From positions 44,881 to 108,880 of IMG/VR virus record IMGVR_UViG_3300002835_000063: 64,000 nucleotides of DNA; one strand, given 5' to 3'. The notes beneath the pieces were generated by a model. That model was not told the origin of the DNA, did not search any database, and saw nothing but the letters and a program-made list of their open reading frames with translations. This stretch comes from a virus. Both the position numbers and the translations under genes were made by a program. This document shows positions 1,466 to 40,465 of the stretch, in pieces. Within the stretch, counting starts at the first letter, position 1. Each line of letters begins with the position of its first letter.

Positions 1466-3688
1466 ATGGCAGTCAGAATTCAGTTTAGGCGCGGAACAGC
1501 CGCAGAGTGGGTAGCCGCCAATCCGACGCTGGCAGTAGGAGAGCTTGGTCACGAGACCGATACCGGCCAGTTTAAGATCGGTAACGGATCAGCCGACTGG
1601 GCAAACCTTGTCTACTCTTCTGTGAGTGAATCATATGTCGATAATGCTATTGCAAATATAATTGACCTTGCTCCAGCAACTCTTGACACTCTAAATGAGC
1701 TAGCAGCAGCACTCGGGGACGACCCAGACTTTTTTAATACCGTTGCCAACAATCTAACCGCCCACATCTCAGACACAAGCGTTCACGGGATAGAAAATAC
1801 TTTAGAACTTGCAACTAGTACTGATGTAGCAAACATTTTGGGACAACACTCAGGATCAACAGTTAACGTTCATGGAATTGCAAATACTGCTGAACTAGTA
1901 CTAAATTCACAACTAGCAGACTACACCACTACCGCCAATTTAGTCAATACTTATGCTACTATTGCATCTCTAGCAGACTATGCAACCACAGCAAACGCAG
2001 TTTTAACCACTCCAAGTATCAATGACGCTACTATCAATAATGTTTCTGTAGTTGGAACTGTTACTCTGCCAGATACCACTTCTATTGGAGGTGTTAGTGC
2101 TACTGAAATATCATATTTAAACAATGTAAGTTCTAGTATTCAAAATCAGCTAAACGATAAAGCACCAACTGACAATGCAATTTTCACTGGAAATATTTCT
2201 CTGCCAGCGACAACATCTATTGGAGATGTAAGCGCCACCGAAATTGGATATCTAGACAACGTAAGTTCAAATATTCAGGTTCAGTTGGATGCTAAGGCCC
2301 CAACAGCTAATGCTAGCTTCACCGGATCTATTGCCTTGCCAGCTACTACATCTATTGGAGACATTAGCTCTGCTGAAATTGGATATCTAGATAACGTAAG
2401 TTCCAATATTCAAGCTCAGTTGGATGCCAAGCTTTCCACTTCTTCAGCTGCTAGCATTTACGCCCCACTATCTGACCCAACATTTATTAGCACTGTTACC
2501 CTGCCAGCTAATACTACGATTGGTTTAGTTACCGGTACAGAAATCGGATATTTAGATAACGTAACTTCTAATATTCAGACTCAGCTGGATGCAAAGGCCC
2601 CGACAGCCAACCCCACCTTTACAGGCACCGTTTCTGGTATTACAGCAACAATGGTTGGACTTGGAAGCGTTGACAATACCGCTGATTTAGACAAGCCAAT
2701 TTCTAACGCAACTCAGAGTGCTCTTGATGCCAAGCTAAGCCTAAGCGGCGGAACAATGACTGGCAAGATTACTCTTGACGGAGATCCATCACAGGCACTG
2801 CACGCTGCTACTAAGCAGTATGTAGACAATCTTGCAGCCGGTCTCCACATCCACGAGGCCGCTCACGCAGCGACTACCGACACACTGGCAAACTTAATAG
2901 CTTCAACTGTTACATATGACAATGGAACTGATGGAGTTGGAGCTACCCTAAGCTTGGGAGCAAACCTAACTACACTTGATGGCCACACACTAAACAATGG
3001 TGACAGAATTTTGGTTAAGAACCAAGCAAACGCTGCTCACAACGGTATTTATGTTCGCACTTCGGCCACCCTACTAACCAGAGCTGATGACTTCAACAGC
3101 GCCGCCGAGATTGCTGGTGGAGATCTAGTATTCGTAGAAAATGGAACTCTCTACAACAGCACTGCCTGGGTAGTCGAGAACGAAGTAAGTACTGTAGGAA
3201 CTGATGACATTCTTTGGGCTCAGTTCTCTGGAGCTGGAACGGTTACTGCTGGAACCAATATTCAGGTAGACGGTCTTCAAGTTTCGGTAATTTCTAACCC
3301 AACTTTTGCAAACGTTGTAACGGCAAGCAGCGGTGTTGCTTTCTCAGATGGAACTCAGACCAAACAGGGTGTCCCCTCAATAACGGTAATTAGCCCTAAG
3401 AGTGGTTCCTACACCTTAGCAAGCTTAGACGAGCGCGACACAATCATTGAGATCAGCAATACAAGTGCTACCACACTCACTATTCCACTTGATTCGACCC
3501 TAAACTTCCCGGTTGGAACCACATTGGACATCATCCAAACCAACACCGGGCAAGTGACCATAGCTGGCGAGGGTGGAGTAACCGTAAACGCCACCCCAGG
3601 CCTAAAACTAAGGGCCCGCTGGTCATCTGCTACACTATTAAAGCGAGCAGCAAACACTTGGCTGGTATACGGCGACCTGAGCGCTTAA
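1466..3688 (+). CDS. Tail-fibre-like protein with Mtd_N/hyaluronidase-N-type N-terminal domain
   Basis: N-terminus RIQFRRGTAAEW..ANPTLAVGELGHETDT..FKIGNG; DTLNELAAALGDD motif; about four LPATTSIG..SATEIGYLDNVSSNIQxQLDAK repeats; GDRILVKNQ module; AAGGA RBS. Confidence 0.8.
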   Translation: MAVRIQFRRGTAAEWVAANPTLAVGELGHETDTGQFKIGNGSADWANLVYSSVSESYVDNAIANIIDLAPATLDTLNELAAALGDDPDFFNTVANNLTAHISDTSVHGIENTLELATSTDVANILGQHSGSTVNVHGIANTAELVLNSQLADYTTTANLVNTYATIASLADYATTANAVLTTPSINDATINNVSVVGTVTLPDTTSIGGVSATEISYLNNVSSSIQNQLNDKAPTDNAIFTGNISLPATTSIGDVSATEIGYLDNVSSNIQVQLDAKAPTANASFTGSIALPATTSIGDISSAEIGYLDNVSSNIQAQLDAKLSTSSAASIYAPLSDPTFISTVTLPANTTIGLVTGTEIGYLDNVTSNIQTQLDAKAPTANPTFTGTVSGITATMVGLGSVDNTADLDKPISNATQSALDAKLSLSGGTMTGKITLDGDPSQALHAATKQYVDNLAAGLHIHEAAHAATTDTLANLIASTVTYDNGTDGVGATLSLGANLTTLDGHTLNNGDRILVKNQANAAHNGIYVRTSATLLTRADDFNSAAEIAGGDLVFVENGTLYNSTAWVVENEVSTVGTDDILWAQFSGAGTVTAGTNIQVDGLQVSVISNPTFANVVTASSGVAFSDGTQTKQGVPSITVISPKSGSYTLASLDERDTIIEISNTSATTLTIPLDSTLNFPVGTTLDIIQTNTGQVTIAGEGGVTVNATPGLKLRARWSSATLLKRAANTWLVYGDLSA

Positions 3689-3703
3689 TTAGGAGAGAAT
3701 TAA

Positions 3704-5080
3704 ATGAGCAAGAGAGCTGGAAGAAAGTCTCAGGCTTCTAATGACTTTTTAGAGCCAAAAGCCCCGATTAACGTATCTGCTACGGACGTTGGAACTGCCC
3801 GTGCCTACAATGATGGCGCTGCTAGCGTTTCTTTCGAGTTACCAGGAGACTCGCCAGCCGCTACTTCTTATGAAGTTAAAGCATATAAAAATGGAACCAC
3901 TCTCGACACTACCGCAACTGGAACAACGGGGGCAAGCTCTCCTATCACAGTTGGCGGGCTAGATTCTGCCACTGGATATACTTTTACAGTATCTGCAACT
4001 AACGCTGCTGGCACATCGGCAGATTCAGCCGCATCTGCTTCTGTAACCATTACAACCGTCCCACAGGCTCCGCAAAGCCCATCAGCCACTTCTACAACTG
4101 CTAATCAAGACATCATCTCTTGGTCAAACGGTGCTAATGGTGGGAAAGCCATAACTAGCACATATTTTGTGTCAAGTGACCAGACCACAAATCCAGGCAA
4201 CGTAACCATGACCACCAACCCATGGACTGAGCCAGAAAACGGTGGTTCAACGCAGAACTATACTCTGTATCACGTAAACGATAATGGAACCTCAGCAGGC
4301 GCTTCTACCGCTAACGTAACTACGATTGCACCATTCTTCCCACCATTCTTCCCACCGTTCTTCCCATTCTTCCCGCCTTTCTTCCCGTTCTTCCCACCGT
4401 TCTTCCCACCGTTCTTCCCACCATTCTTCCCACCATTCTTCCCGTTCTTCCCACCTTTCTTCCCACCGTTCTTCCCGCCATTCTTCCCACCATTCTTCCC
4501 ACCGTTCTTCCCACCGATGTTCCCATTCTTCCCACCGTTCTTCCCACCGTTCTTCCCACCGATGTTCCCATTCTTCCCACCGTTCTTCCCACCTAGATTC
4601 CTATGTATTGAAGAAAACACAATGATCTTGACACCTAGAGGAGAGATCGCGGCTAAGGATCTTCGAGCAGGAGATACGGTATTGTCAATAGCAATTAATG
4701 AGATTGGCAATAACTCTGTTACCCCAATTGAATTCACTGTTGGTGCAACTTTGACGAGCACATCGCAGCTAGTCGAGACAAAGATTGTTGGAATTCTAGA
4801 GACCGTAAAGACCGGAATAACTTACTTCAACGGTAGGTCAGAGGCCAGATATTCTAGCCAGCAGCCACTGTTTGTTAAGTCTGATGGAGAATTCCAGGTA
4901 AAGATTGTTTCTAACATTAAGCTTGGAGATGCTCTCCTGCTGATTAATCCAGATGGAACATACACCGAAGAAGAGGTAACCGAAATTACTCTAGTTTCGG
5001 AGCCGGCCAATGTATTCCAATTCTCCTGCGAGCCATATCACTGGTTTATAGCTGGTGGCTACTTGGCCCACAATAAGTAA
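3704..5080 (+). CDS. FN3-domain protein with (PPFF)n tract and C-terminal Hint (intein-like) domain
   Basis: FN3-like segment (YTFTVSATNAAGTS); residues 210-297 almost only Pro/Phe; then CIEENTMILTPRG..AAKDLRAGDTVLS ... HWFIAGGYLAHNK*, matching Hint blocks A and F/G; AGGAG RBS. Confidence 0.85.
   Translation: MSKRAGRKSQASNDFLEPKAPINVSATDVGTARAYNDGAASVSFELPGDSPAATSYEVKAYKNGTTLDTTATGTTGASSPITVGGLDSATGYTFTVSATNAAGTSADSAASASVTITTVPQAPQSPSATSTTANQDIISWSNGANGGKAITSTYFVSSDQTTNPGNVTMTTNPWTEPENGGSTQNYTLYHVNDNGTSAGASTANVTTIAPFFPPFFPPFFPFFPPFFPFFPPFFPPFFPPFFPPFFPFFPPFFPPFFPPFFPPFFPPFFPPMFPFFPPFFPPFFPPMFPFFPPFFPPRFLCIEENTMILTPRGEIAAKDLRAGDTVLSIAINEIGNNSVTPIEFTVGATLTSTSQLVETKIVGILETVKTGITYFNGRSEARYSSQQPLFVKSDGEFQVKIVSNIKLGDALLLINPDGTYTEEEVTEITLVSEPANVFQFSCEPYHWFIAGGYLAHNK
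4331..4594 (+). repeat. Coding tandem repeat of 12-nt (PPFF) and 9-nt (PFF) units, 88 codons
   Basis: ccN ccN ttc ttc units; Pro third positions vary (cca/ccg/cct) while Phe is ttc; 22 FF and 2 MF dipeptides counted. Confidence 0.95.
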
Positions 5081-5098
5081 AAGCAGTACTACTAAACT

Positions 5099-5137
5099 AC
5101 CCCCCTTATGATTAGTAAGGGGGGGTGTTTATTTTTT
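5099..5137 (+). terminator. Intrinsic terminator after the PPFF-Hint gene
   Basis: cccccctta-tgattag-taagggggg hairpin followed by tgtttattttt. Confidence 0.8.
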
Positions 5138-5186
5138 AACTTTAATCACTATAATTGAATAGAGTGGTTTAACAGAAAGAATTTAT

Positions 5187-5921
5187 ATGAATACTTGGTT
5201 CACAAAAGACAGATCAGAGACTGACTCTAATCGAATGCCCCCAAGACCACTGGGCCAAAAAATACAAGTATTAAACCCTGCCTTAGGGATAAATGTATAT
5301 CGTGGCGCAATAACAAAAGAAGAGGGCAGGGCTTGCGTAGACATTTTAGAGTCAACCTTAAATGGCCAAACTCAATACAAATGGAGTGATGCTCAAGTTA
5401 CAAATTCTTCAAAGGCTAACCTAGAAGCAAGAAATGCCAAAGATTTTAAATTTAATTCGACTGGCCTAGGGCCAAAAAATGAAGAAAATGAAAAATTATA
5501 TGAAATGCACGAAAAAATTTTTAGGGCAGTAAAAGCATGTGTAGATGATTATGGTTATTACTGGGGCGTTGGGATAATGTCATATGAGGCTTTTAACTTT
5601 GTTAAGTATGAAGGAGCCGGGACCCACTTTAAAATTCACGCAGATCATGGCCCAACATATGTAACTACGGTGTCTATTGTCGTGTATCTCAACGATGATT
5701 ATGAGGGGGGAGAACTTTGGTTTCCCCGATTTGATTTAACCCTAAAACCACAAGCTGGAGATATAGCAGTTTTTCCGTCAACATACATCTACGAACACGC
5801 TTCGCAGGACATGATTAGTGGGACTAAGTATTCTGTTGTCATTATGAGCGACTATAATGACAGAGATAATGTAAACCAAAGAGTGCCTCAAACCATTCAA
5901 AATTATCAACTTAAGTACTAG
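5187..5921 (+). CDS. 2OG-Fe(II) oxygenase, prolyl-4-hydroxylase-like (1)
   Basis: HAD...VYLNDDYEGGEL.F...FPS...EH...GTKYS. Confidence 0.9.
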   Translation: MNTWFTKDRSETDSNRMPPRPLGQKIQVLNPALGINVYRGAITKEEGRACVDILESTLNGQTQYKWSDAQVTNSSKANLEARNAKDFKFNSTGLGPKNEENEKLYEMHEKIFRAVKACVDDYGYYWGVGIMSYEAFNFVKYEGAGTHFKIHADHGPTYVTTVSIVVYLNDDYEGGELWFPRFDLTLKPQAGDIAVFPSTYIYEHASQDMISGTKYSVVIMSDYNDRDNVNQRVPQTIQNYQLKY

Positions 5922-5932
5922 AAAGAGCCAAA

Positions 5933-6703
5933 GTGTCAGAACAGATCAACAAAACCGAAGAAGAAGTACGCCTAGAGGCAGAACAAAAAAGTAAAGAAGA
6001 GCAAAAAAATATACACGAGCGGCTAGTAAATTGGTACAAAATTGACGAGGTGACTTGGAGTTCAGCAGAAGAAATTGTTCCTGGCAGCGGCATTTGGGTA
6101 TACCATGATGTTTTGCCCGCCGAGATGAATATAATTTCTCGGTTAGAAGAAGTTTTAGATAATCCAGAAAATAACTATCAGTACCAAGAAGCAATGGTCG
6201 GATATGCAATGAAAATCCCGGAGTACCGAGACTGCGTAGATTTTAAATACAAAGAGAATGACTTTGACAATGATCAGTCAGAGTGGGGTGACAAGCTTCG
6301 ACAGTTGGCAAAAGATACAAAGTATAGACAGCTACAGGTAGTAAAAGATTACACAAGAAGATATAACATCGGCGAACTTCGTTACTGGGAAGCAACCAAC
6401 TATGTTCGCTATGGAGTTGGCCAACACTTCCAGGAACATCACGATCACGGGTACTCCTACAACTGTGTAGTTTCTTTGGTTGCGTACCCAAATGACGACT
6501 ACGAAGGCGGTGAGCTTTATTTCAGATTACAAAACATAACTGCTAAAGCCCGCGCTGGCGATGTTTTTATTTTTCCCTCTAATTTTATGTACCCACACAG
6601 GGCAATGCCAGTTAAGTCTGGAGTTAAATACTCTATGGTTACTATGCTTGATTACTCAGAAAAACTACACAATCCAGAATTTTTTAAGGAGCTAGAGAAC
6701 TAG
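5933..6703 (+). CDS. 2OG-Fe(II) oxygenase, prolyl-4-hydroxylase-like (2)
   Basis: HHD...YPNDDYEGGELYF...FPSNFMYPH...GVKYS. Confidence 0.9.
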   Translation: MSEQINKTEEEVRLEAEQKSKEEQKNIHERLVNWYKIDEVTWSSAEEIVPGSGIWVYHDVLPAEMNIISRLEEVLDNPENNYQYQEAMVGYAMKIPEYRDCVDFKYKENDFDNDQSEWGDKLRQLAKDTKYRQLQVVKDYTRRYNIGELRYWEATNYVRYGVGQHFQEHHDHGYSYNCVVSLVAYPNDDYEGGELYFRLQNITAKARAGDVFIFPSNFMYPHRAMPVKSGVKYSMVTMLDYSEKLHNPEFFKELEN

Positions 6704-7449
6704 TGTCAATAGTTTCGATACAAAAGCTTTTTAAAGAGGGAGACGTTGCAAATATTGAGCAACTTCCAGCCCGTAGAGACTGGATGGATCAAACTCAGGA
6801 CAAACATGCCTACATGTGTTTTCCCTTAAATCTAACAAACAGGCTTGGTTGGTCAATATCTTTTCCGGAGGATATTTCTTTTATTTGGGACGGAGTAACA
6901 GATACTTCTCCAGATCATGTAAAAATTTTAAAAGGAGAAAAATTTGTTCACCCAACTAGGGGAAATGCAACAATTAGTTTTTTAACTGGTTTAAAGTTCA
7001 CAACAGACCAAAATACTTCTATATTGGCAATGCCAGTACCCAACTTGTTTATCAGGGGGGCGCAGTGCTACACAACTCTGATGAGCACCTCTTTTTATAT
7101 ACACATGCTTCCACTGGCCTGGAGAATTACTGAACCAAACATAGAAATAGAAATACCAGCCGGAACCCCCGTAGCTTCAATTTTGCCAATCTCTTTAACA
7201 AATCTAGAGAACGACTACGAACTTCAAATTACCGAGGACCTGCCAGACGGATCCTACTGGGAAGAAGTTAGAAAGTATGGCGATGCAACCATAATTAAAA
7301 ATGGCGCGGGCGACTGGTCAAAAATGTATAGAGATGCCCTAGACTATAACGGAAATTCTGTTGGCTCTCATGAAACTAAATCAATAAAATTAAAAACTGT
7401 AGTATGCCCGGCTACAGGAAAAAACTATGAAATAGAGGAAACTATTTAA
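6703..7449 (+). CDS. DUF6065-like protein
   Basis: RDWMD...HAYMCFPL..TN.LGW and GTPVASILPI motifs recalled from this family; start overlaps the upstream stop. Confidence 0.65.
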   Translation: MSIVSIQKLFKEGDVANIEQLPARRDWMDQTQDKHAYMCFPLNLTNRLGWSISFPEDISFIWDGVTDTSPDHVKILKGEKFVHPTRGNATISFLTGLKFTTDQNTSILAMPVPNLFIRGAQCYTTLMSTSFYIHMLPLAWRITEPNIEIEIPAGTPVASILPISLTNLENDYELQITEDLPDGSYWEEVRKYGDATIIKNGAGDWSKMYRDALDYNGNSVGSHETKSIKLKTVVCPATGKNYEIEETI

Positions 7450-8189
7450 TGGAAACTAAAAAAATTAAGTTTGTAGTAAATAGACCTTGGTTAAGTAAAG
7501 AAAGTAGTTCTCTGCCAAAACCAACAATAAAAACTATTCCAGATTGGTACAGAGAGGGGGATCGATATGCAAAACATCCAGTAACTGGAGAGTACTGGAA
7601 AGATCCGCAGAATGGCGGAAAAATTCCAACTTGGAAAGCTTGCCCATCGGTATATGACATCATGGGCTCTGGCTATGTTTACAGGACTCCCTGCGACATT
7701 GAATTTAAAGAAAATATTTACGGACAAATAGAAGCCAAAGTTTTAGACGAAAAAAATAAAGACTTTTTGCAACTTAGAACGCCCATGCCAGGATTTAAAG
7801 CTCCAATGGGATACCACGATGTTCATTTTGCGTGGTGGGCTGATTGGGCGGTCGAATTGCCCGAGGGGTATAGTGCACTTTACTCCCAGCCGTTTAATAG
7901 ATTTGAACTGCCGTTTATTACAACTAGTGGAATTATTGATAACGACAAAGTCCATTTGCCGGGGACAATGCCATTTTTTGTTGTAAAAGGATTCCAAGGA
8001 GTTCTACCAGCAGGAACTCCGTATGCTCAGATCTTGCCATTTTTAAGAGAGCACTGGGAATCTGAAATTGTAGATTCCATAGGTTACGAAAAAATGGTAC
8101 AAAAAAATATGGACAACAGCCAAAAATACAGGGTCCCAGACGGCGGGGTTTACCAAAAAGATGTCTGGGAACGAAGAAAATACGAATAA
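7449..8189 (+). CDS. DUF6065-related protein
   Basis: IPDWY...TWKACP...D.MGSGY...SGIIDND...GTPYAQILPF.R; distant resemblance to the upstream gene. Confidence 0.55.
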   Translation: METKKIKFVVNRPWLSKESSSLPKPTIKTIPDWYREGDRYAKHPVTGEYWKDPQNGGKIPTWKACPSVYDIMGSGYVYRTPCDIEFKENIYGQIEAKVLDEKNKDFLQLRTPMPGFKAPMGYHDVHFAWWADWAVELPEGYSALYSQPFNRFELPFITTSGIIDNDKVHLPGTMPFFVVKGFQGVLPAGTPYAQILPFLREHWESEIVDSIGYEKMVQKNMDNSQKYRVPDGGVYQKDVWERRKYE

Positions 8190-8203
8190 GATAAACTAGA
8201 CCC

Positions 8204-8887
8204 ATGAGAAACGACTACACAAATAACAACATTACTCCATATATGTCAATAACCCCTTCAGGATTTTTTGGCGATTCTGCAGAAAATATTGTTGCTATTG
8301 ACGACTTTATGACCGAAGAAGAATTAACCTATCTAAACAATTTTGCTAGGAAAAATACCATGTGGGACGCAACCGAGACTCACTATAACGAAGATGGTAC
8401 AGTGATTTATGACTCTTCTTACTGGGATCATCGAGTTGCAACGGCTCCCATATTAAAAGAAGCTGATATAAAAGTAGTTGAACTAATATCTGATATGCAA
8501 GATAGATTAAAGAAAAAAGTTGATACTTTTTTCGCAGTGGATGCTCATCCCACAAGCCCGGCGCTAGTTAGGTGGCTACCCGGACAAAGACAGCAACCGC
8601 ACGCAGATAAAGAACTACATGAGGGCGAGGGCAGGGGGAAGCCAAATGACTTCCCATACTATGACATAGCTGGCCTTTTTTATATAAACGATGACTATGA
8701 GGGAGGAGAGCTATATTTCCCTAACCAAGGTATTCAATTTAAACCAAAAGCCGGATCAGCTTACTTTTTTCCAGGAGACATGAATTATATCCACGGAGTC
8801 ACAGAAATCAAGTCTGGAATTAGATATGTTTGCCCATTTTTCTGGACAATAAAAGAGCACACTGGCAACCACAAACCAAATTTATAG
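8204..8887 (+). CDS. 2OG-Fe(II) oxygenase, prolyl-4-hydroxylase-like (3)
   Basis: PHADKE...YINDDYEGGELYF...FPGD..YIHGV.....GIRY. Confidence 0.9.
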   Translation: MRNDYTNNNITPYMSITPSGFFGDSAENIVAIDDFMTEEELTYLNNFARKNTMWDATETHYNEDGTVIYDSSYWDHRVATAPILKEADIKVVELISDMQDRLKKKVDTFFAVDAHPTSPALVRWLPGQRQQPHADKELHEGEGRGKPNDFPYYDIAGLFYINDDYEGGELYFPNQGIQFKPKAGSAYFFPGDMNYIHGVTEIKSGIRYVCPFFWTIKEHTGNHKPNL

Positions 8888-8918
8888 TAGAATTATCATC
8901 AACAAGCAAGGATCTAAA

Positions 8919-9698
8919 ATGCATTTAGCCCAGAAACTACACGAAGAAGTTTATCTATACGAGGATGTAATTAGTGATCCCAAAAAACTTATTGATTTAA
9001 TTGAAGAATTAGATGAAGACGAAACTGTCCAAAGCGTAATTCCAGAATGGGGCTTTTGGTTTTCAAACAGCCGTGACGGTCACAGTTTCGGCAGTAAAAA
9101 AGATTTTAATCCAGAAGCCTTAGATCAACTAGACTCATCTAGAAAAGAAGATGTTGAGTTTATAGTAAAAGAAATTCAGAGTGGTGTAAAAAATGTTGCA
9201 GAATCCTACTACAAAGATAGAGGACTAGAGGGTCAACCACAAATATCTCCGTTTGTTGGAATTATGAAGTACCGCCCAGGCTGCGAAATGGGCGCACACT
9301 TTGACGCTCAGGCCGGAGATAGAAGTTTAAAGTATTCGATTGTGATGTATTTAAATGACGACTATGAGGGCGGAGAGATCTCCTTTATTATTAGACCATA
9401 TGATTTAAGAAACCCAAAAAATTTCCACCTTCAACCATCAACCGATGCTGACGACCCCAAAAATAAAGATCTCACAGACTTTACGCTAAAACCAAAAGCT
9501 GGATCAGCATTAATTTTTCCCTCTACTCATCCGTATAAGCACCAAGTTCACATAATTAAGGGTGGAGATAAGTATATTTTCCCTGGTTTTGTTTTTCAAG
9601 ATGATTTTGATCCAAATGATCCAGCTTCTAGAGAAAAATACAATGCCGGATCTCTATACGAAAAGCCAACCGAAGACGTTTATTTCGACGAAGACTAA
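8919..9698 (+). CDS. 2OG-Fe(II) oxygenase, prolyl-4-hydroxylase-like (4)
   Basis: AHFD...YLNDDYEGGEISF...FPSTHPYKHQV....GDKY. Confidence 0.9.
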   Translation: MHLAQKLHEEVYLYEDVISDPKKLIDLIEELDEDETVQSVIPEWGFWFSNSRDGHSFGSKKDFNPEALDQLDSSRKEDVEFIVKEIQSGVKNVAESYYKDRGLEGQPQISPFVGIMKYRPGCEMGAHFDAQAGDRSLKYSIVMYLNDDYEGGEISFIIRPYDLRNPKNFHLQPSTDADDPKNKDLTDFTLKPKAGSALIFPSTHPYKHQVHIIKGGDKYIFPGFVFQDDFDPNDPASREKYNAGSLYEKPTEDVYFDED

Positions 9699-9702
9699 TA
9701 AA

Positions 9703-10317
9703 ATGTATGAGGCCATTTCGCCAAAAGTTCTATACTTTAAAAATTTTTATAAAGACACAGAAAAGTTTTTAGAGGCTATAGAAAGCTCCCCACCCTGGGA
9801 ACCATGGAATTCTCGGGGTGGCCAAAATATTTTTACTTACGGAGTATTAAAAACATTTCATACCCAAGAATACAAACAAATAGCAGATATTAATCAAAAA
9901 AATTCTAGTAAATTTATTATTAATGCCATGAAAAAAATAAATTTAGTCTGCGGATCAGAGTATTTAAAACATTTTCAATGCTCGGACAATGAATTAAGTA
10001 GATTAAAAAAGTCCATTTTAACGGATAAAATAATTATTGGCGTAAAAAAATATTTTGAGGGGGGGACCACCCTAGGCCCACACCCAGACGCGGACCTACA
10101 ATCATCAAAAGATGAAATAAGCATAACTTTTTATCCAAACGATAATTATGAGGGCGGAGAATTAAATTTTCCCGATTTGGGGCTAACAATTAAACCAGAG
10201 GCCGGAAGTGTGGTCATATACCCATCAAAATATTTACATGAATCTTTCCCCGTTCCCACGGGAGAAAAGTTGGTGTCTAATCACGTATACATTGGACTGG
10301 AAAAAATATGGAAATAA
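9703..10317 (+). CDS. 2OG-Fe(II) oxygenase, prolyl-4-hydroxylase-like (5)
   Basis: PHPD...YPNDNYEGGELNF...YPSKYLHES....GEK. Start moved to the in-frame ATG at 9703, just after the upstream stop. Confidence 0.85.
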   Translation: MYEAISPKVLYFKNFYKDTEKFLEAIESSPPWEPWNSRGGQNIFTYGVLKTFHTQEYKQIADINQKNSSKFIINAMKKINLVCGSEYLKHFQCSDNELSRLKKSILTDKIIIGVKKYFEGGTTLGPHPDADLQSSKDEISITFYPNDNYEGGELNFPDLGLTIKPEAGSVVIYPSKYLHESFPVPTGEKLVSNHVYIGLEKIWK

Positions 10318-10964
10318 AATATGAAATACCTTACGAGAATATTGTTTATTTTCCAGAAATTGTTCCGGACGTAGATAACATAATTTCTTCAATAGAGTCC
10401 ACAAATAGTCTAGCTATAACTAAATGGGAAATTTGGAATGCTTATGGAGAATCAGACGGGGATCCATATGGCGAAGTAAAATACATGAGCAAACATCTTT
10501 TAGATGCAGAGACTAACCAAAAAACTGTAGAAACCTCAAAATATATAATTTCTACGCTAATAAGTTCAATGTCATTAGCAGCCGAAACTTACGCAAAAAT
10601 ATATAACATTGATTCTAACCTTTTGCAGTATGCAATTGATGCATTAAATATGCCTGGCACAAAATATGGAATAAACAAATATTTTGAGAATCAATACATG
10701 GGACCACACGTTGACTGGAATGAGTACAACTCCGACATTACTTATACCATTGTTGTTTACTTGAACGATGATTACGAAGGCGGGGAGCTATTTTTTGTGG
10801 ATCCGGACATAAACATAAAAATAAAACCTAAAAAGGGAAGCATAGTAATGTTTCCATCTGTCCTGCCATATCTGCATCAATCCTGTGAGATTACTAAGGG
10901 AAGAAAAATGCTGATAACTCATCACTGGAAAAATGATTCACTATCAAGAAACAGGACTTACTAA
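10308..10964 (+). CDS. 2OG-Fe(II) oxygenase, prolyl-4-hydroxylase-like (6)
   Basis: PHVD...YLNDDYEGGELFF...FPS..PYLHQS....GRK. Confidence 0.9.
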   Translation: MEIKYEIPYENIVYFPEIVPDVDNIISSIESTNSLAITKWEIWNAYGESDGDPYGEVKYMSKHLLDAETNQKTVETSKYIISTLISSMSLAAETYAKIYNIDSNLLQYAIDALNMPGTKYGINKYFENQYMGPHVDWNEYNSDITYTIVVYLNDDYEGGELFFVDPDINIKIKPKKGSIVMFPSVLPYLHQSCEITKGRKMLITHHWKNDSLSRNRTY

Positions 10965-11818
10965 TGTCAATTAATGTAAATCTTATTGAAGTTTTTTCTA
11001 AAGAAGATCTCTATTCTAGACTAAACGAAATTTTAGATGTTCAAACTAAAAATTCCATTGTTGGGATTAGAGGAGTTAGGCTTACTGAAGAAGAGCAGCT
11101 ACAGCTAGCCAGAGATCTCGGAGACATAGCTGGCTGGTTCCCAAACAACACCGACAAATTTAATCACAAATATATTGAAAATCACTCTGCCAACCCATCG
11201 GTGGGAGCCTCTTCAAATAACGAATTAATTTTAAGCTGGCACCTAGAGCGCGTCGATTATGACGAATATCTTTTGTTGGTGGCTGGCGTTTGGAACATGA
11301 GACTTTTTAATTGTGATCCAGAATCGGGTAAAACATATTTTATAGATTCCAGAAAAGTGTTCCAAAAAATTTACAATGAAGATGAAAAGAATTTTTTGCG
11401 AGGCTGCAAAGCCTACTGGACAGAACAAACGCCAAGCGGCAATACACGCACTAATTATGTAAAGATTGTTCAGCCCCATTGGAAGACCGAAGAAGAACAA
11501 ATTAGAGTTGAGCTACACCATATGGCTGCAATTAAATTGTACAAAATAAACGATAATGACCCAACTTCAGAAGAAGCGGCCGCCTTTGAGTCATTAATGA
11601 AAAGATTTTCTCAAGAAATAGCAAACAACGAAGATTTAAGAATAATTCACAAATGGAAAGAGGGAGACATCCTCATTCCAGATCTTTTCTCTCTAGCGCA
11701 CGCCGTCACGGGCGGATTTGACCCCAAAGACAGAGAGTTTACCGGATACTGGTGCTATACGGCGTCTCCCTCTAGTGTTGGAGAAGACAATGTCCCGCCA
11801 TCTTGGAGGGGTGAATAA
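10964..11818 (+). CDS. TauD/TfdA-family 2OG-dependent dioxygenase
   Basis: WHLE, G.TYFID, HKWKEGDILIPD...LAHAV.GG....R pattern. Confidence 0.7.
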   Translation: MSINVNLIEVFSKEDLYSRLNEILDVQTKNSIVGIRGVRLTEEEQLQLARDLGDIAGWFPNNTDKFNHKYIENHSANPSVGASSNNELILSWHLERVDYDEYLLLVAGVWNMRLFNCDPESGKTYFIDSRKVFQKIYNEDEKNFLRGCKAYWTEQTPSGNTRTNYVKIVQPHWKTEEEQIRVELHHMAAIKLYKINDNDPTSEEAAAFESLMKRFSQEIANNEDLRIIHKWKEGDILIPDLFSLAHAVTGGFDPKDREFTGYWCYTASPSSVGEDNVPPSWRGE

Positions 11819-11820
11819 GC

Positions 11821-12291
11821 TTGAACGATTTAAATCCAACAAATGAAGTATATGTAAATCAATACAAAGAAGCTGTAAAACAAAATAAAGCAAATTCTTA
11901 TATGCTCACTATTGCCAGAGACGGCGAATCACCAGTCAGGTCAATTTATTTTTATGATAATGCAGTAGACGCCACTATTGGATATGAAGCATACCAAGAC
12001 TGGGGATTTGCTAAAGACTATCTAACGGTGGAGCTATATGAGCCAACTGGAAGGGTTCACAGCAAAGTTTTGCGCAGGCCTCGCGGTGGAGAGTGCACTT
12101 TTGAGCGGGCACAGTACTACCAAATTTCTGACATAATAAACGCCGTTAAGCCAAAAGTAGACGAGGAAGCATTCAACTACCTAGCCTACGAGTTTGCTAA
12201 GCTATTCTCGAAGGACAACCAAAGGTTTAATCCAGAGCGATTTTTAGAGACGCTGGGATATACAGGAGAAATAAATGACAGATCTGTCTAA
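11821..12291 (+). CDS. Hypothetical protein
   Basis: 156-aa ORF filling the gap within the operon; no motif recognised. Confidence 0.7.
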   Translation: MNDLNPTNEVYVNQYKEAVKQNKANSYMLTIARDGESPVRSIYFYDNAVDATIGYEAYQDWGFAKDYLTVELYEPTGRVHSKVLRRPRGGECTFERAQYYQISDIINAVKPKVDEEAFNYLAYEFAKLFSKDNQRFNPERFLETLGYTGEINDRSV

Positions 12292-13009
12292 GATCGAGAC
12301 TACCCCGACAGAGTTTGGCGATAAGGGATTTATCAAAGAAGATATTGTTTTTTACAATAATTTTCTAACCCAAGAAGAGTGTGAGACCCTGGTTAGAGTA
12401 TTCGAGGACGAAGAGCAACCCTGGAGCATGTCAGCTTTTTTTGAGTCGTACGGCATGAGTATTATGCCAGAAGACCCGATTTTAGAGCGATACGGGTTAC
12501 CTAGAGATTACTTTGGGAAACTAGCAGATAGGCTACATAAGGTAGTAGAAGATGCCCACGAGCGTCCAGTAAAATCAGTTTCGTCTCATGCCCAGAAGTG
12601 GCAAATAGGGGCGTTTGCTCCATTTCATTCAGACAACACCGACATGGATGGAAACCCGTCTGCCTGGGAGAAAAGCAAACTTGTCTGCCTCTTGTACATA
12701 AATGACGACTATGAGGGCGGAGAGCTAGACTTTAGGGATCACGATATCTCGATCAAACCGGTGGCGGGCCAGTTAATTACTTTCCCCGGCGGATTTAATA
12801 ACATCCACCAAGTGTTGCCAGTGAGGGGCTCTACGAGACATACCATTGGAGCTTTCTGGGATTATGCCGAATCGGTCTACTCCGAAGAGCGCATGAAGCA
12901 ATGGGAAGATGAAATCCAAAAGGTCCGAGAAGAGCAAAAAGTCATGCAGGACGAGTGGAAAGAAATGGTTGCCAAGGGGGTCCACCCCACGGATCCGGGC
13001 GCTCAATAG
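12275..13009 (+). CDS. 2OG-Fe(II) oxygenase, prolyl-4-hydroxylase-like (7)
   Basis: FHSDN...YINDDYEGGELDF...FPGG..NIHQV.....STRHT; AGGAG RBS. Confidence 0.9.
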   Translation: MTDLSKIETTPTEFGDKGFIKEDIVFYNNFLTQEECETLVRVFEDEEQPWSMSAFFESYGMSIMPEDPILERYGLPRDYFGKLADRLHKVVEDAHERPVKSVSSHAQKWQIGAFAPFHSDNTDMDGNPSAWEKSKLVCLLYINDDYEGGELDFRDHDISIKPVAGQLITFPGGFNNIHQVLPVRGSTRHTIGAFWDYAESVYSEERMKQWEDEIQKVREEQKVMQDEWKEMVAKGVHPTDPGAQ

Positions 13010-27285: not shown

Positions 27286-27727
27286 TTCCCAGCGAATTGT
27301 AGGCATCCACAGCGTTCGCACTAGTCCTACTTTGCCAAGTAAACTGACATTCGTCACAGCGGACAATTTTCATTGTCGCCCAGCGGCCACCTTCAGGTCG
27401 ATCTACTGTAGCAGTTTTTAGTTTATCTGTTTTAGCTTTGCAGTTCGGGCACAACGGAAACCTTTTATATCTAATCTCTTGCCCTTCCCAATTAATTGAC
27501 AGGGTATTTCTAATTTTTTCTGGGGTTAAGCCGCCCCAAATTCCCCAAATTTGCTTGTTGTTTAGTCCCCACTGTAGGCAGTCTTTCCTAACAGGACACT
27601 TATTGCACAGTTTTTTAGCTTCCCACTGCTGAGAAGGCTTATTTGCAAAAAATTTGTCTATTTTGTCAAAGTTTTCAGGTTTAGCACATTCGGCATCTTC
27701 GTGCCAGCCCGGAGAATCAAAAAACAT
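27254..27727 (-). CDS. whiB: WhiB-family transcription factor with C-terminal zinc ribbon
   Basis: W...A.C ... AKKLCNKCPVRKDC ... GIWGG; extra CPNC...CDEC. Confidence 0.9.
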   Translation of the reverse strand: MFFDSPGWHEDAECAKPENFDKIDKFFANKPSQQWEAKKLCNKCPVRKDCLQWGLNNKQIWGIWGGLTPEKIRNTLSINWEGQEIRYKRFPLCPNCKAKTDKLKTATVDRPEGGRWATMKIVRCDECQFTWQSRTSANAVDAYNSLGTKKKPPQSST

Positions 27728-37474: not shown

Positions 37475-40465
37475 TTATTGTCCTTCTAGTGATGTTATTC
37501 TAGCCTGTAATTCAGTAGTTTGCTGGGAAAGCTCCTGAATGGCTTTTGTTAGGTATGGAATAAGGCTCTGGTAGTCTAGGGTTTTTAGTGGCCCTTCACT
37601 TAAATCTATATCAGTTTCAACTGATTCTACTGATATTTCCCCTACTATTCCTAAATCAGAACTAAATACTTCTTGCACCTCCTGAGCAATGAATCCAGGA
37701 AGACGCTTATCAATGTCATCCACTAAAGAGTCAAAGGTCACTGGATTCAGTTGATTTACAATAGAAAGTCCCTCGGATATAGTTTCTATTTGAGACTTAA
37801 TTCTTCGGTCAGAAGAAGTTACGTTTAGTGCAAGTCCGGAGCCATTCCAACGAACTATCGGGTTAGTGGTAGAGATTGTCATGGTTCCAACTACTACGGT
37901 TGACCCAGAGGTAATCGACCCGGTGGACGTGATAGTCCCATTAGACCCCATGGTTGCCCAGTTGCCGGTACCAACGCCGCTACGAACAAAGGTGTCTGCT
38001 TGAATAGATTGGGTGGCTGTAACAATTCCAACTACATCCAAATTACTGTTAAATGTTTCTCCCGGAGATAGGGAAATTCCAGAAGAATTGACGCTAAATA
38101 TTGTTACTCCGCCAGTCTGAAAAGCTATTCCACTATTACCATTTAAAACTAAATTAGTAGACCCAGCAGAAACTTCACCTTTTTCAGCATTATCTGATCC
38201 ATAAAATACTAAAGAATCGGTGCCTCCATCTAAAACTACGCGCTTTCCGCTGGAACCAGTTTGAATGTTGCCACCAGTGCTGGTTATGCTTCCAGAGGCG
38301 GTAAGAGATCCAGTGAGTCTGGCAGTATCAATGTAGACATCGTCTAAATATGCATCACCATTGCCATAAAATCTAAACTTAGTTCCACCTAGGCCATCAA
38401 ATGCAAAAATACCGGGATCGCCTAAGCCGGTACCAGCCCCCCTAATTTCAATTCTTTGACTACCGGCAGGAGCCGTTCTAATAACACTAGAAAGAACTAA
38501 ATCAGCGGCAAGTTTTCCTGCCGTAACCGCACCGGCATCAATTTTATCGGCTTCGACAGCTCCAGCATCAATCTTTACGGCAGTTACAGCGCCTGCATCA
38601 ATTTTATCTGCAGTGACAGCATTAGTGTCAATTTTGCCCGCTGTAATAGCACCCGTAGCTATGGTATTTGAGGTGACAGCATCAGCACCAATTTTTCCAG
38701 CAATAATAGCTCCGGCTGCAATTTGGTCCGCTCCGATGGCGTTTGCCGCTATAGCATTTTGAACCACAACTCCGGGACCAAAAAGAGTAGACGCATTTAT
38801 TGCACCATTAGCCAAAGCACCAGCAGGAACAACTCCACCGTTAAATGGCCACTCGCTCAGTGCGGCGTAGACAAGATCTGTATCTACAAGAGGGGAAACT
38901 TGGGCGGTAACTTGCTCGGAGTATTGACCCTCTACGCCAGAGGTATCTACCAAAGATATTCTGATGTAGTAAGAGGTATTGTAGTTGAGATCAGTTAGAA
39001 CATCAAAACCACCATCAGCACCAAAGACTCTAGTACTCAAGGCTAGGTTAGCTGGCCCTGGAGTAAATCCAGGAGTCGTTGAAACATAGATTTTCATTAC
39101 AACAATGTCAGCCTGAGCCGCAATGGTTGTACTAGGGCCAGTCTTTAGATTTCCATCCCAAGTAACTGTTATGGTGCCCAGTCTGCTGGTGGCTACCGGA
39201 TTAGTTGGCTGGTAGTTAGTGTGATCGCCTGTTTTTTGCGTGGTTGTAATGCTGTCAGTGACTGCATTAGACTTTTCATTGCCGGAGTCATAGGCACGTA
39301 ATTTAAAATAGTAAGTATTACCAGGTAAAAACTTGTAGGCCGGACCAAAAGTAAAAGTAGTTAGAGTTGGATCCTCAAACTCTACGTCTGGGCCCCAGGG
39401 AGCTGAAGTACTTTCCCTCCAATTAAATATGTAACCAAGTAGGTCAGTTATGGGATTACCAGATTCACTGGTTGTTGGTGGAGTCCAAGTAGCAACGATT
39501 TCCGAGTAAGCTTGGTAATCAGCTCCAGCCACTTTTGGTGTTTCAGTAAGATTAAATGCTGTTGGAGGATTTGGCGGGTCACCATCACCAGGCAACGAAG
39601 CCGTGGATGAATCTACCCAACGGATGCCGTCCCAAAAATAAATTTTATCTGTGGTTGTATCGGCCCATGTAGATCCTACAGCAGCATACTTTCTTGCTAC
39701 TGGAAAAACATAGACTGGATCGTCAGGGGTGACGTTACCAGTAGGAGTTACGACACCAGCAGCCAACGTGTAAACAATTGTTGTATCCGTAACAGAATCA
39801 ATTCTAAAAAGCCCGTCAAGACCATAAGCCCTAGAATCTTCGTTAAATATGTCAACAAAAATAATGTCGTCAGCTTTAAAGTGATGAGTGGCGTTCATTG
39901 TCAAGGTGACTGTAGTGCCAGTTATCGAAAAATAATCTACCAGTCTTCTTGTTTGAAACCGTCTTCGACTAGCCCACGTCGTAGGAGCCTGGGTATCAGG
40001 CTTATAAGAATACGTGTTGGTAATAGTGACACCAGCTAGCTGATCCTGGGTAGGGTCGTGTCTGTAGCTTCTTCCTGTCCAAGGCGGAGTGTCTACTTGT
40101 TTTACTGTAAAGTTGTCTCCCGTTGAATCTACTTCAAGATTGGACGCCCAGTGTACTCCCGAAACATGAAGTCTTTCCCCAACCGCTAAATTTAAATCAG
40201 ACTGCGAGTATATTTCCACTCTGTCTTCCGCTAATCCAGTTAGAGCTTTTGGATACAACCATGCATCTTCCACTCTTCTCCACTGGAAAGGGGCATTAGC
40301 ACTTACTACGGATTCGGGGACCTCGACGGCCTCTCCAGCCTCCACAGCTGCAGCAACTTGATCGGAAGTTAGAAAGCTAACTGGTCTAAGTTCTACGGCT
40401 TTCACGCGTTGATCTAAACGACTCATTAGAGTCGTAAGTTTTCTCCTACGTCTTCTAATTCCCAT
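37475..40465 (-). CDS. Minor tail/central fibre protein with FN3 domains and C-terminal intramolecular chaperone (peptidase S74-like)
   Basis: YYFKLRAYDSG (FN3), AVTADKIDAG repeats, SSDRRIK...GFIAQEV...YLTKAIQEL. Confidence 0.85.
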   Translation of the reverse strand: MGIRRRRRKLTTLMSRLDQRVKAVELRPVSFLTSDQVAAAVEAGEAVEVPESVVSANAPFQWRRVEDAWLYPKALTGLAEDRVEIYSQSDLNLAVGERLHVSGVHWASNLEVDSTGDNFTVKQVDTPPWTGRSYRHDPTQDQLAGVTITNTYSYKPDTQAPTTWASRRRFQTRRLVDYFSITGTTVTLTMNATHHFKADDIIFVDIFNEDSRAYGLDGLFRIDSVTDTTIVYTLAAGVVTPTGNVTPDDPVYVFPVARKYAAVGSTWADTTTDKIYFWDGIRWVDSSTASLPGDGDPPNPPTAFNLTETPKVAGADYQAYSEIVATWTPPTTSESGNPITDLLGYIFNWRESTSAPWGPDVEFEDPTLTTFTFGPAYKFLPGNTYYFKLRAYDSGNEKSNAVTDSITTTQKTGDHTNYQPTNPVATSRLGTITVTWDGNLKTGPSTTIAAQADIVVMKIYVSTTPGFTPGPANLALSTRVFGADGGFDVLTDLNYNTSYYIRISLVDTSGVEGQYSEQVTAQVSPLVDTDLVYAALSEWPFNGGVVPAGALANGAINASTLFGPGVVVQNAIAANAIGADQIAAGAIIAGKIGADAVTSNTIATGAITAGKIDTNAVTADKIDAGAVTAVKIDAGAVEADKIDAGAVTAGKLAADLVLSSVIRTAPAGSQRIEIRGAGTGLGDPGIFAFDGLGGTKFRFYGNGDAYLDDVYIDTARLTGSLTASGSITSTGGNIQTGSSGKRVVLDGGTDSLVFYGSDNAEKGEVSAGSTNLVLNGNSGIAFQTGGVTIFSVNSSGISLSPGETFNSNLDVVGIVTATQSIQADTFVRSGVGTGNWATMGSNGTITSTGSITSGSTVVVGTMTISTTNPIVRWNGSGLALNVTSSDRRIKSQIETISEGLSIVNQLNPVTFDSLVDDIDKRLPGFIAQEVQEVFSSDLGIVGEISVESVETDIDLSEGPLKTLDYQSLIPYLTKAIQELSQQTTELQARITSLEGQ

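Follow-up and report, generated by a model that had tools for sequence, protein, structure and literature searches.

Peptidase S74 is a self-cleaving C-terminal chaperone module of phage fibres and spikes that works through a Ser-Lys dyad. Many 2-oxoglutarate (2OG)-Fe(II) oxygenase genes without an assigned role are carried by aquatic phage genomes. Among Hint domains, that of Hedgehog (1at0) lies at the C-terminus, cuts at its own Cys1, by which the N-terminal part of the protein is set free or modified; A- and B-type bacterial intein-like (BIL) domains were reportedly described in Amitai et al. 2003. For BIL domains auto-cleavage rather than splicing is expected (PMC7765530), the Tetrahymena BUBL BIL2 passes its N-extein to an outside amine through an isopeptide bond (PMC8616854, section 2.4), and Pro-rich repeats encoded by chlorovirus PBCV-1 are hydroxylated by the prolyl 4-hydroxylase (P4H) of the same virus (PMC3634087). 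Described here is a gene at positions 3704-5080 (+) of a 64,000-nt stretch of viral DNA (the window; positions 44,881 to 108,880 of IMG/VR record IMGVR_UViG_3300002835_000063). Its 458-aa product is composed of two fibronectin type III (FN3) domains, a tract made almost entirely of Pro and Phe, and a C-terminal Hint domain, and a cluster of P4H-like oxygenase genes follows at 5187-13009 (+).

The best explanation of this arrangement, to which we give a probability of roughly 0.5, is a composite one, in which the polymer is hydroxylated and the Hint domain first caps it and then removes itself at Cys301. The adjacent battery of P4H-like oxygenases would hydroxylate the Pro-rich polymer, with DUF6065 as a partner. 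Cys301 would attack the carbonyl of Leu300 in an N-to-S acyl shift, aided by strain from a bulky residue at position -1 in place of the missing block-B His. The thioester would then be resolved, most simply by water, so that the Hint removes itself and an FN3-FN3-polymer with a new C-terminus is produced. Before that point the aggregation-prone tail would have the Hint as its soluble cap.

The tract occupies residues 210-297 (4331..4594, +) and contains 44 Phe, 42 Pro and 2 Met and no other residue, as the first-pass annotation of the window had read it. It is built from 24 P(P)xF units, which take the forms PFF, PPFF and PPMF with a final PPRF, and Tandem Repeats Finder gives repeat periods of 12, 33 and 45 nt over 4329-4593. 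It is predicted to be non-globular, with a predicted local distance difference test (pLDDT) score of about 50 and no secondary structure. All 44 of its Phe codons are TTC, against 270 TTT and 119 TTC in the window outside the tract, and its Pro codons are CCA (25), CCG (14) and CCT (3). When all Pro-rich tracts of the family are pooled, TTC exceeds TTT by 3402 to 311, TAC exceeds TAT by 344 to 41, and CCC accounts for 17 of 3327 Pro codons; runs of T6 and C6 are thereby avoided in a tract that needs its frame. Tracts of this kind recur in frame in over 100 related loci, and an aromatic repeat in this frame is retained by nearly all of the more than 600 metagenomic relatives, so that the tract is no product of chance. 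Conservation of the frame is by itself weak evidence of selection, since units of 9 or 12 nt preserve it in any case. Even where the N-terminal domains have diverged to approximately 40% identity, the tract is still present. P(P)xF units span 90% of 71 distinct tracts, the last residue of the unit is always Phe, and the variable x is most often F, then Y, then G, S or others; relatives swap PPFF for PYF, APPxFF or TPFGF units. Persistence, a fixed grammar and the family-wide codon bias together support the view, already put forward in the first-pass annotation, that the tract is selected as a peptide.

The length of the tract is much less constant than its grammar. Loci with 100% identical N-termini have tracts of 86, 100 and 142 residues, or of 46 and 94, and the range over the family is 46-165 residues. 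Lake populations (metagenome runs X1, X3 and X7) contain in-frame variants shorter by 3 nt at 4355, 4406 and 4454. Contigs from these three runs fit both flanks perfectly and break within the repeat, none bridging it, so that individual lengths, including the 88 residues given here, depend on the original assemblies alone. In the same runs the word depth over 4331-4594 is 10-15 times that of the flanks, which indicates that many co-occurring phages have the same repeat DNA words. Variation in length at constant N-terminal sequence, together with units of 9 and 12 nt that hold the frame automatically, would fit a low-complexity spacer made by slippage and without specific chemistry. The oxygenase cluster would then owe its position to shared descent and have other targets, such as collagen-like fibres, nucleic acid or targets in the host. 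Such a spacer would not be expected to keep its grammar beyond N-terminal divergence to about 40% identity, nor to show the same codon bias throughout the family. The oxygenase cluster itself supplies the other evidence that bears on this alternative.

The seven P4H-like 2OG-Fe(II) oxygenase genes of the cluster, recognised by Pfam matches and synteny, start at 5187, 5933, 8204, 8919, 9562, 10308 and 12275. Interspersed are two DUF6065 genes (6703 and 7449), a TauD-like gene (10964) and a gene without assignment (11821). All seven paralogues retain the HxD...H triad and Lys187 without change, and a profile made from them matched only protein prolyl/lysyl hydroxylases in the PDB, namely the B. 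anthracis P4H (E 6e-11), PiuC-type enzymes, the PBCV-1 P4H, P3H1 and LH3 (entries 5iax, 5hv0 and 3itq at E 6e-11; 5c5t at E 2.7e-8; 8k0e). The seven genes therefore have the triad, the basic 2OG-binding residue and the similarity to characterised enzymes by which a P4H-like protein is recognised. The two tandem DUF6065 paralogues (6703-8189) are 17% identical to each other and are always found inside the oxygenase cluster. Residues R25, C39, G49, F60, N114, F116 and P162 are invariant in 20 DUF6065 sequences, related clusters are mostly viral, and searches gave neither a sequence or profile match in the PDB nor profile similarity to the oxygenases. The TauD-like gene (10964-11818, 284 aa) has weak NCBIfam matches of the TauD/gamma-butyrobetaine-dioxygenase kind (E 3.5e-4) and no homologue in any of 124 related loci.

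Gene neighbourhoods were rebuilt from these 124 IMG/VR loci by open reading frame calling and BLAST. The conserved order is fibre gene, tract gene, two oxygenase genes, two DUF6065 genes, a further oxygenase gene and so on. Co-occurrence was assessed in loci with at least 3 kb of downstream sequence, a cluster being defined as DUF6065 plus at least two P4H-like genes directly downstream. Where the tract is Pro-rich (P above 30%, including the APPxFF variant at locus L109) the cluster was present in 92/92 loci; where it is of the FG type (TPFG(A)FGF, 11-15% Pro) it was present in 0/14. The FG type forms one clade nested among the Pro-rich types, L109 lies inside that clade, and the cluster changes along with the tract at both changes of tract type on the tree; this topology leaves only two independent trait changes. 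From this co-occurrence we give even odds to the tract being the substrate of the oxygenases. The FG-type repeats (loci L092-L103, L037, L038 and L041; e.g. L095:8001-9281) resemble nucleoporin FG repeats, and DUF6065 is present in two of five FG-type phage records.

The small number of trait changes also suits the spacer alternative, as does the appearance of tract gene and cluster as separate transcription units, and collagen-like genes, which could be the true substrate, lie 8 kb downstream in the window. However, two complete genomes of the Pro-rich type have both cluster and tract and gave no match to the collagen-like fibre of the window, and FG-type records gave weak, short matches to it only. 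Collagen as a required substrate is weakened by this, an argument that is suggestive, not decisive. Since the cluster also shifts with the tract at both changes of type, a slippage-made spacer beside an unconnected cluster is considered quite unlikely.

The proximity of modifying enzymes had led the first-pass annotation to compare the layout to a precursor peptide placed before its tailoring enzymes. The strict co-occurrence with the oxygenase cluster bears out the adjacency, but 'precursor peptide' is a loose analogy and as a label it does not suit a fibre-module protein of 458 aa whose FN3 domains are folded and whose gene has no protease or cyclase gene in its vicinity. In its literal form the idea would make the protein a precursor like those of ribosomally synthesised and post-translationally modified peptides, its tract cut or cyclised to PPFF-type peptides like the cyclolinopeptide or antamanide cores. 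PPFF is indeed the core of known cyclic peptides (PMC9266943), and the modifying enzymes are encoded next door. Relatives, however, use PYF, APPxFF or TPFGF rather than PPFF. A precursor of this kind was rejected: 5187-13009 contains no protease, cyclase or leader-recognition gene, the FN3 domains are folded and the gene belongs to a fibre operon. It is very improbable indeed.

The tract is followed by R298-F299-L300 and then Cys301 (4595..4606, +), L300-C301 being the putative scissile bond, and the protein ends in His-Asn-Lys-stop, both as previously read from the translation. An AlphaFold2 model of residues 296-458, made from 49 sequences, had a pLDDT of 92.2 and a predicted template modelling score of 0.87. 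Foldseek against the PDB returned Hint folds only, all top matches having a probability of 1.00; 2lwy was first (E 6e-8, template modelling score 0.80), followed by 6y75, 6tmm, many inteins and Hedgehog 1at0 (E 3e-6). With phmmer 2lwy was again first (E 5.6e-4). Pfam matches fell below their cut-offs (PT-HINT, PF07591, 18.4 vs 27.7 bits; Hint_2, PF13403, 18.1 vs 28.4 bits), Intein_splicing matched sub-threshold, and NCBIfam gave no match for the domain. The C-terminal domain (residues 301-458; 4604..5077, +) can be confidently modelled as a Hint fold opening at Cys301, closest to BIL domains. The findings that would have spoken computationally against the first-pass annotation, namely another fold at this end and homologues that lack the tract or have it out of frame, did not appear.

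Conservation was examined in 102 Hint homologues with a mean pairwise identity of 37%. Only two residues, Cys301 (Cys1) and Asn376 (4829..4831, +), are invariant in 102/102. Block A is canonical, its pattern C-[IVL]-x-x-x-[TS]-x-[IVL]-x-T-x-x-G being retained. Block B is atypical, as had been pointed out before: S384-S-Q-Q387-P388 (4853..4867, +) stands in place of T-x-x-H-P and aligns to T-F-D-H of 2lwy. Among the homologues this block reads S (89%) or T (11%), x-x, Q (77%), H (20%) or E (3%), and P. The block-F Asp position is D in 45 homologues, Q in 33 and other residues in the rest, the window protein having Gln. Block G is H456-N457, followed by K458 and the stop codon (5069..5080, +), without a C-extein nucleophile. 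His-Asn closes 52 of the 102 Hints, most others ending in V-I-S or V-I-A, and 0-7 residues lie beyond the Hint in relatives. With only Lys458 and a stop after His456-Asn457, splicing is excluded and C-terminal cleavage is irrelevant. The His-Asn end, which the first-pass annotation had pointed out, is missing from about half of the Hints; the conserved feature is Cys1. Because Cys1 is absolute and His-Asn is found in about half only, the candidate reaction is N-terminal cleavage or transfer, and N-terminal thioester chemistry rather than splicing is the candidate conserved activity suggested by the alignment.

The same alignment can be read differently, as that of a degenerate, non-catalytic Hint kept as a soluble terminal knob or cap and never removed, in which case the mature protein would have 458 aa. 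Gln replaces the block-B His in 77% of relatives and the block-F Asp in the subtype of the window protein, the terminal Asn is gone in about half, and other relatives bear unrelated small modules (Cys-rich or short acidic) at this place, which fits generic capping. But a structural role alone leaves the requirement for Cys as first residue unexplained: Cys1 is invariant in 102/102 sequences while 156/158 other positions vary, the canonical block A is kept, and 20% of relatives retain the canonical His. In the N-S acyl shift a bulky residue at -1 can replace the block-B His (PMC6333167). Of the 79 Gln-type Hints 66 have a bulky -1 residue; the window protein has Leu there, with Phe before it. 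Whether block B has Q or H showed no relation to how large the -1 residue is; His-type Hints favour a bulky -1 residue too, so that a bulky -1 residue is compatible with activity and no proof of it. An inert cap is unlikely, if far from negligible, and the odds that the Hint is active at Cys301 are judged to be a little better than even.

The Hint is an optional part of the protein. The C-terminus was classified in 108 related loci. Hints lacking the Asn accounted for 33 of them, Hints with His-Asn for 21 and unclassified Hints for 4; of the others, 19 had a Cys-rich tail and 31 a short one, often acidic. No Hint remnant was detected by tblastn in the loci with Cys-rich or short tails. A maximum-likelihood tree built on the N-terminal 200 residues shows the C-terminal states interleaved, and the closest relative of the window protein (L003, 75% identity) is without a Hint; the C-terminal module has been swapped repeatedly and may be a variable region of the protein. 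As Hint-less relatives keep the tract, the role of the tract does not need the Hint. The capping of the tract by a Hint, as first proposed, does not extend to the approximately 45% of relatives without one. The three types of terminal module share only that they are soluble ends on a very hydrophobic tail. The Cys-rich tail of 19 Hint-less loci has about 30 residues with 6-8 Cys, e.g. ..CP.C....NCPSLWC.C.GPC..NCVC (relatives P0026, P0074, P0101, P0108 and P0117; loci such as L048, L056 and L072), and may close off the polymer with a small knot held by disulfides or metal.

In a wider set of proteins, too, the Hint is found next to tracts of this kind. A phmmer search with the Hint against 1.84 billion cluster representatives gave only 243 relatives at E <= 1e-3. 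Among the representatives listed, 58 have a single terminal Hint preceded by 60 residues or more. Over the 40 positions in front of Cys1, these proteins have medians of 30% Pro and 27.5% aromatic residues, compared to 6.7% and 9.5% in the remainder of the same proteins, and 50 of the 58 exceed 25% Pro or 25% aromatic just before Cys1. The N-terminal parts are 280 to 1061 aa long and mostly unannotated, and the types of tract include PPFF, PPHF, PPTFFD, TPPAA, TPVAPV, poly-Pro and FTPY/FTPFGF. Taken with the case of Phage NCTB discussed below, these tracts indicate that an extended repeat abutting a terminal Hint is a recurrent design. Thirty representatives of about 1000 aa have 3-6 tandem Hint copies (P0143, P0145, P0149, P0152, P0174 and others); P0143 opens with a signal-peptide-like segment followed directly by GGGG-Cys.

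A recurrent stalk-plus-Hint design raises an alternative to hydrolysis, in which the thioester is resolved by a specific nucleophile and the C-terminus of the stalk becomes attached to a virion lysine, a lipid or a host cell-wall amine. The layout of display domains, Pro-rich stalk and C-terminal anchoring device recurs across the Hint subfamily and parallels that of proteins anchored in the wall of Gram-positive bacteria, and the two WhiB genes of the record make a host of this kind likely. Such a reaction would be sortase-free or Hedgehog-like anchoring, and the Hedgehog Hint 1at0 is among the structural matches. Tetrahymena BUBL BIL2, one of the closest structural relatives, transfers its N-extein to lysines (PMC8616854). 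On the other hand nothing like a sterol-recognition extension follows the Hint, the phage protein has no acceptor on record, and Hint-less relatives exist. Ligation of this kind is decidedly unlikely, and its fuller version, in which the Hint acts as an enzyme-free covalent anchor joining a hydroxylated stalk to an amine or hydroxyl on a virion protein or on the wall of the Gram-positive host, is best regarded as a long shot.

Several observations weigh against the composite explanation of hydroxylation, capping and self-removal at Cys301. On the chemical side, block-B His and block-F Asp are both Gln in the window protein, and mutations of the block-B His usually inactivate inteins (PMC7765530). 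Some 45% of the relatives that have the same N-terminus, tract and oxygenase cluster do without the Hint. The association of tract and oxygenases rests on only two trait changes, in loci that were retrieved with family members as queries, and FG-type phage records hold 1-5 PF13640 genes elsewhere. A terminator-like hairpin stands between the tract gene and the oxygenase cluster, and it is only from gene context that the 458-aa protein would be assigned to the virion.

The gene itself is a single open frame with an ATG start and a TAA stop. Other open frames across the repeat, at 4326-4625 (+) and 4270-4761 (-), are shadows of it. The ATG begins 15 nt beyond the stop codon (3686-3688) of a fibre gene (1466..3688, +; 740 aa), which has an Mtd_N-type N-terminus (Pfam Mtd_N, E 3.4e-15) and matches tail-fibre and minor-tail PHROGs; its counterpart precedes the tract gene in 106 related loci. 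A Shine-Dalgarno-like AGGAG (3691..3695, +) lies 8 nt 5' of the ATG and 3 nt past the upstream stop codon. Downstream is the terminator-like hairpin (5100..5134, +), with a 10-bp stem containing 6 G-C pairs and a T-run, and 3' of it a TATAAT at about 5150. The tract gene is the last gene of a tail-fibre operon, with its own Shine-Dalgarno sequence and terminator. In a metatranscriptome (run X15), the library of which may contain DNA, small low-depth contigs covered parts of the gene, none of them the Hint part, a result that speaks neither for transcription nor against it.

A search of 5.8 billion proteins gave at least 603 relatives of the 458-aa protein, all from metagenomes or 'uncultured Caudovirales phage' records, the best available name being 'Fibronectin type III'; BFVD holds two full-length members under that name. 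Nearly all have an FN3 region of about 200 residues followed by an aromatic repeat. An AlphaFold2 model of the full protein, based on a 54-sequence alignment, showed two beta-sandwiches, the tract as coil with a pLDDT of about 50, and a confident C-terminal domain. The first 20 codons (3704..3763, +) encode a conserved peptide (K3, G6, S9, N-D-F-L-E-P, P18) with near-invariant alignment columns and a pLDDT of 52-80; it is predicted to be unstructured and may be a docking segment. FN3 domain 1 (residues ~20-115; 3761..4048, +) is a beta-sandwich with a pLDDT above 93, and residues 34-111 score 31.8 bits with Pfam fn3, above its cut-off of 25. FN3-like domain 2 (residues ~120-207; 4061..4324, +) is a second beta-sandwich, again with a pLDDT above 93, and its BFVD matches are tandem FN3 regions of phage tail proteins. 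The 458-aa product is almost certainly a real modular fibre-module protein.

The rest of the window codes for a tape-measure protein, major head protein, head-tail adaptor, PolA, primase-helicase and collagen-like fibres, a siphovirus-like layout. The source record is 108,880 bp long, and complete relatives measure 105-120 kb, terminal repeats being present in some. Near-identical DNA turned up in 14 metagenome runs on lakes or fresh water, contributed by at least nine studies. Megablast of window positions 3000-6000 against the phage collection gave no match. Two WhiB-family genes (PF02467, E 1e-19 to 1e-20) are present in the record, at 27515-27706 (-) of the window and at 37890-38096 (-) in record coordinates, which makes an actinobacterial host likely. 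A siphovirus-like phage of fresh water, about 105-120 kb in size and with an actinobacterial host, is the probable source.

In a literature search no description of a Pro/Phe repeat of this kind or of Hint-capped fibres was found. In public records the proteins go by 'Fibronectin type III' or are listed as hypothetical. What this analysis adds is the invariance pattern of the Hint, the optionality of the terminal module, the rule of Pro/aromatic tracts before Cys1 and the codon evidence. A Pro-rich candidate substrate encoded next to the enzymes makes the role of the 2OG-Fe(II) oxygenases of aquatic phages directly testable. The family is also a natural experiment on Hint catalysis, in which Cys1 is absolute, the 'essential' block-B His has become Gln and the terminal Asn is optional. 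An encoded Pro/Phe polymer of 46-165 residues that is kept, resized and capped in three ways is an unusual, biomaterial-like sequence, and the position of this Hint subfamily next to Pro/aromatic tracts in proteins of various kinds points to a reusable module. Should the Hint prove to be a covalent anchor, a fibre protein would be ligated without sortase or any other enzyme, and a general module of stalk plus Hint anchor would be defined in many unrelated proteins.

Compared to the BIL domain of C. thermocellum (2lwy), the phage domain has the Hint fold, the N-terminal Cys and the lack of a +1 nucleophile in common, and it too may sit in a variable region of a non-conserved protein. It differs in its sub-cut-off Pfam scores, its block-B Gln, its strictly terminal position, its place behind a Pro/aromatic tract and its being phage-borne. 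Tetrahymena BUBL BIL2 (6y75, 6tmm), the second-best structural match, keeps the catalytic His69 and sits between two ubiquitin-like domains. The Hedgehog domain matches in fold, but the phage Hint ends one residue past His-Asn, without a sterol-recognition region, and has no block-B His. Nor is it an intein, which would be an insertion followed by a +1 Cys, Ser or Thr of a C-extein. The only match in the phage collection was BN7874_136 of Phage NCTB (LT598654; 27.7% identity, E 1e-6), annotated as 'putative phage tail protein, contains intein domain'. Like the window protein it is of fibre type with an extended repeat and a terminal Hint, the repeat however being a collagen-like (G-X-Y) region with an acidic/Gly linker, and block B being the canonical T-x-x-H. 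Phage NCTB is a surface-water jumbo phage with three Hint-bearing genes around its fibre genes (LT598654, 4960-12219), namely the collagen-like tail protein with terminal Hint, a 153-aa stand-alone Hint and a 1304-aa 'large intein domain protein'. In chlorovirus PBCV-1 a viral P4H (5c5t) and viral Pro-rich repeats parallel the pairing proposed for the window, which differs in its seven paralogues plus DUF6065 and in its candidate substrate, a Pro/Phe polymer. The scan of the window protein gave no Pfam Peptidase S74 match; nevertheless that module and the proposed Hint would follow the same logic, to assist maturation and then to remove themselves, by means of an unrelated fold and unrelated chemistry.

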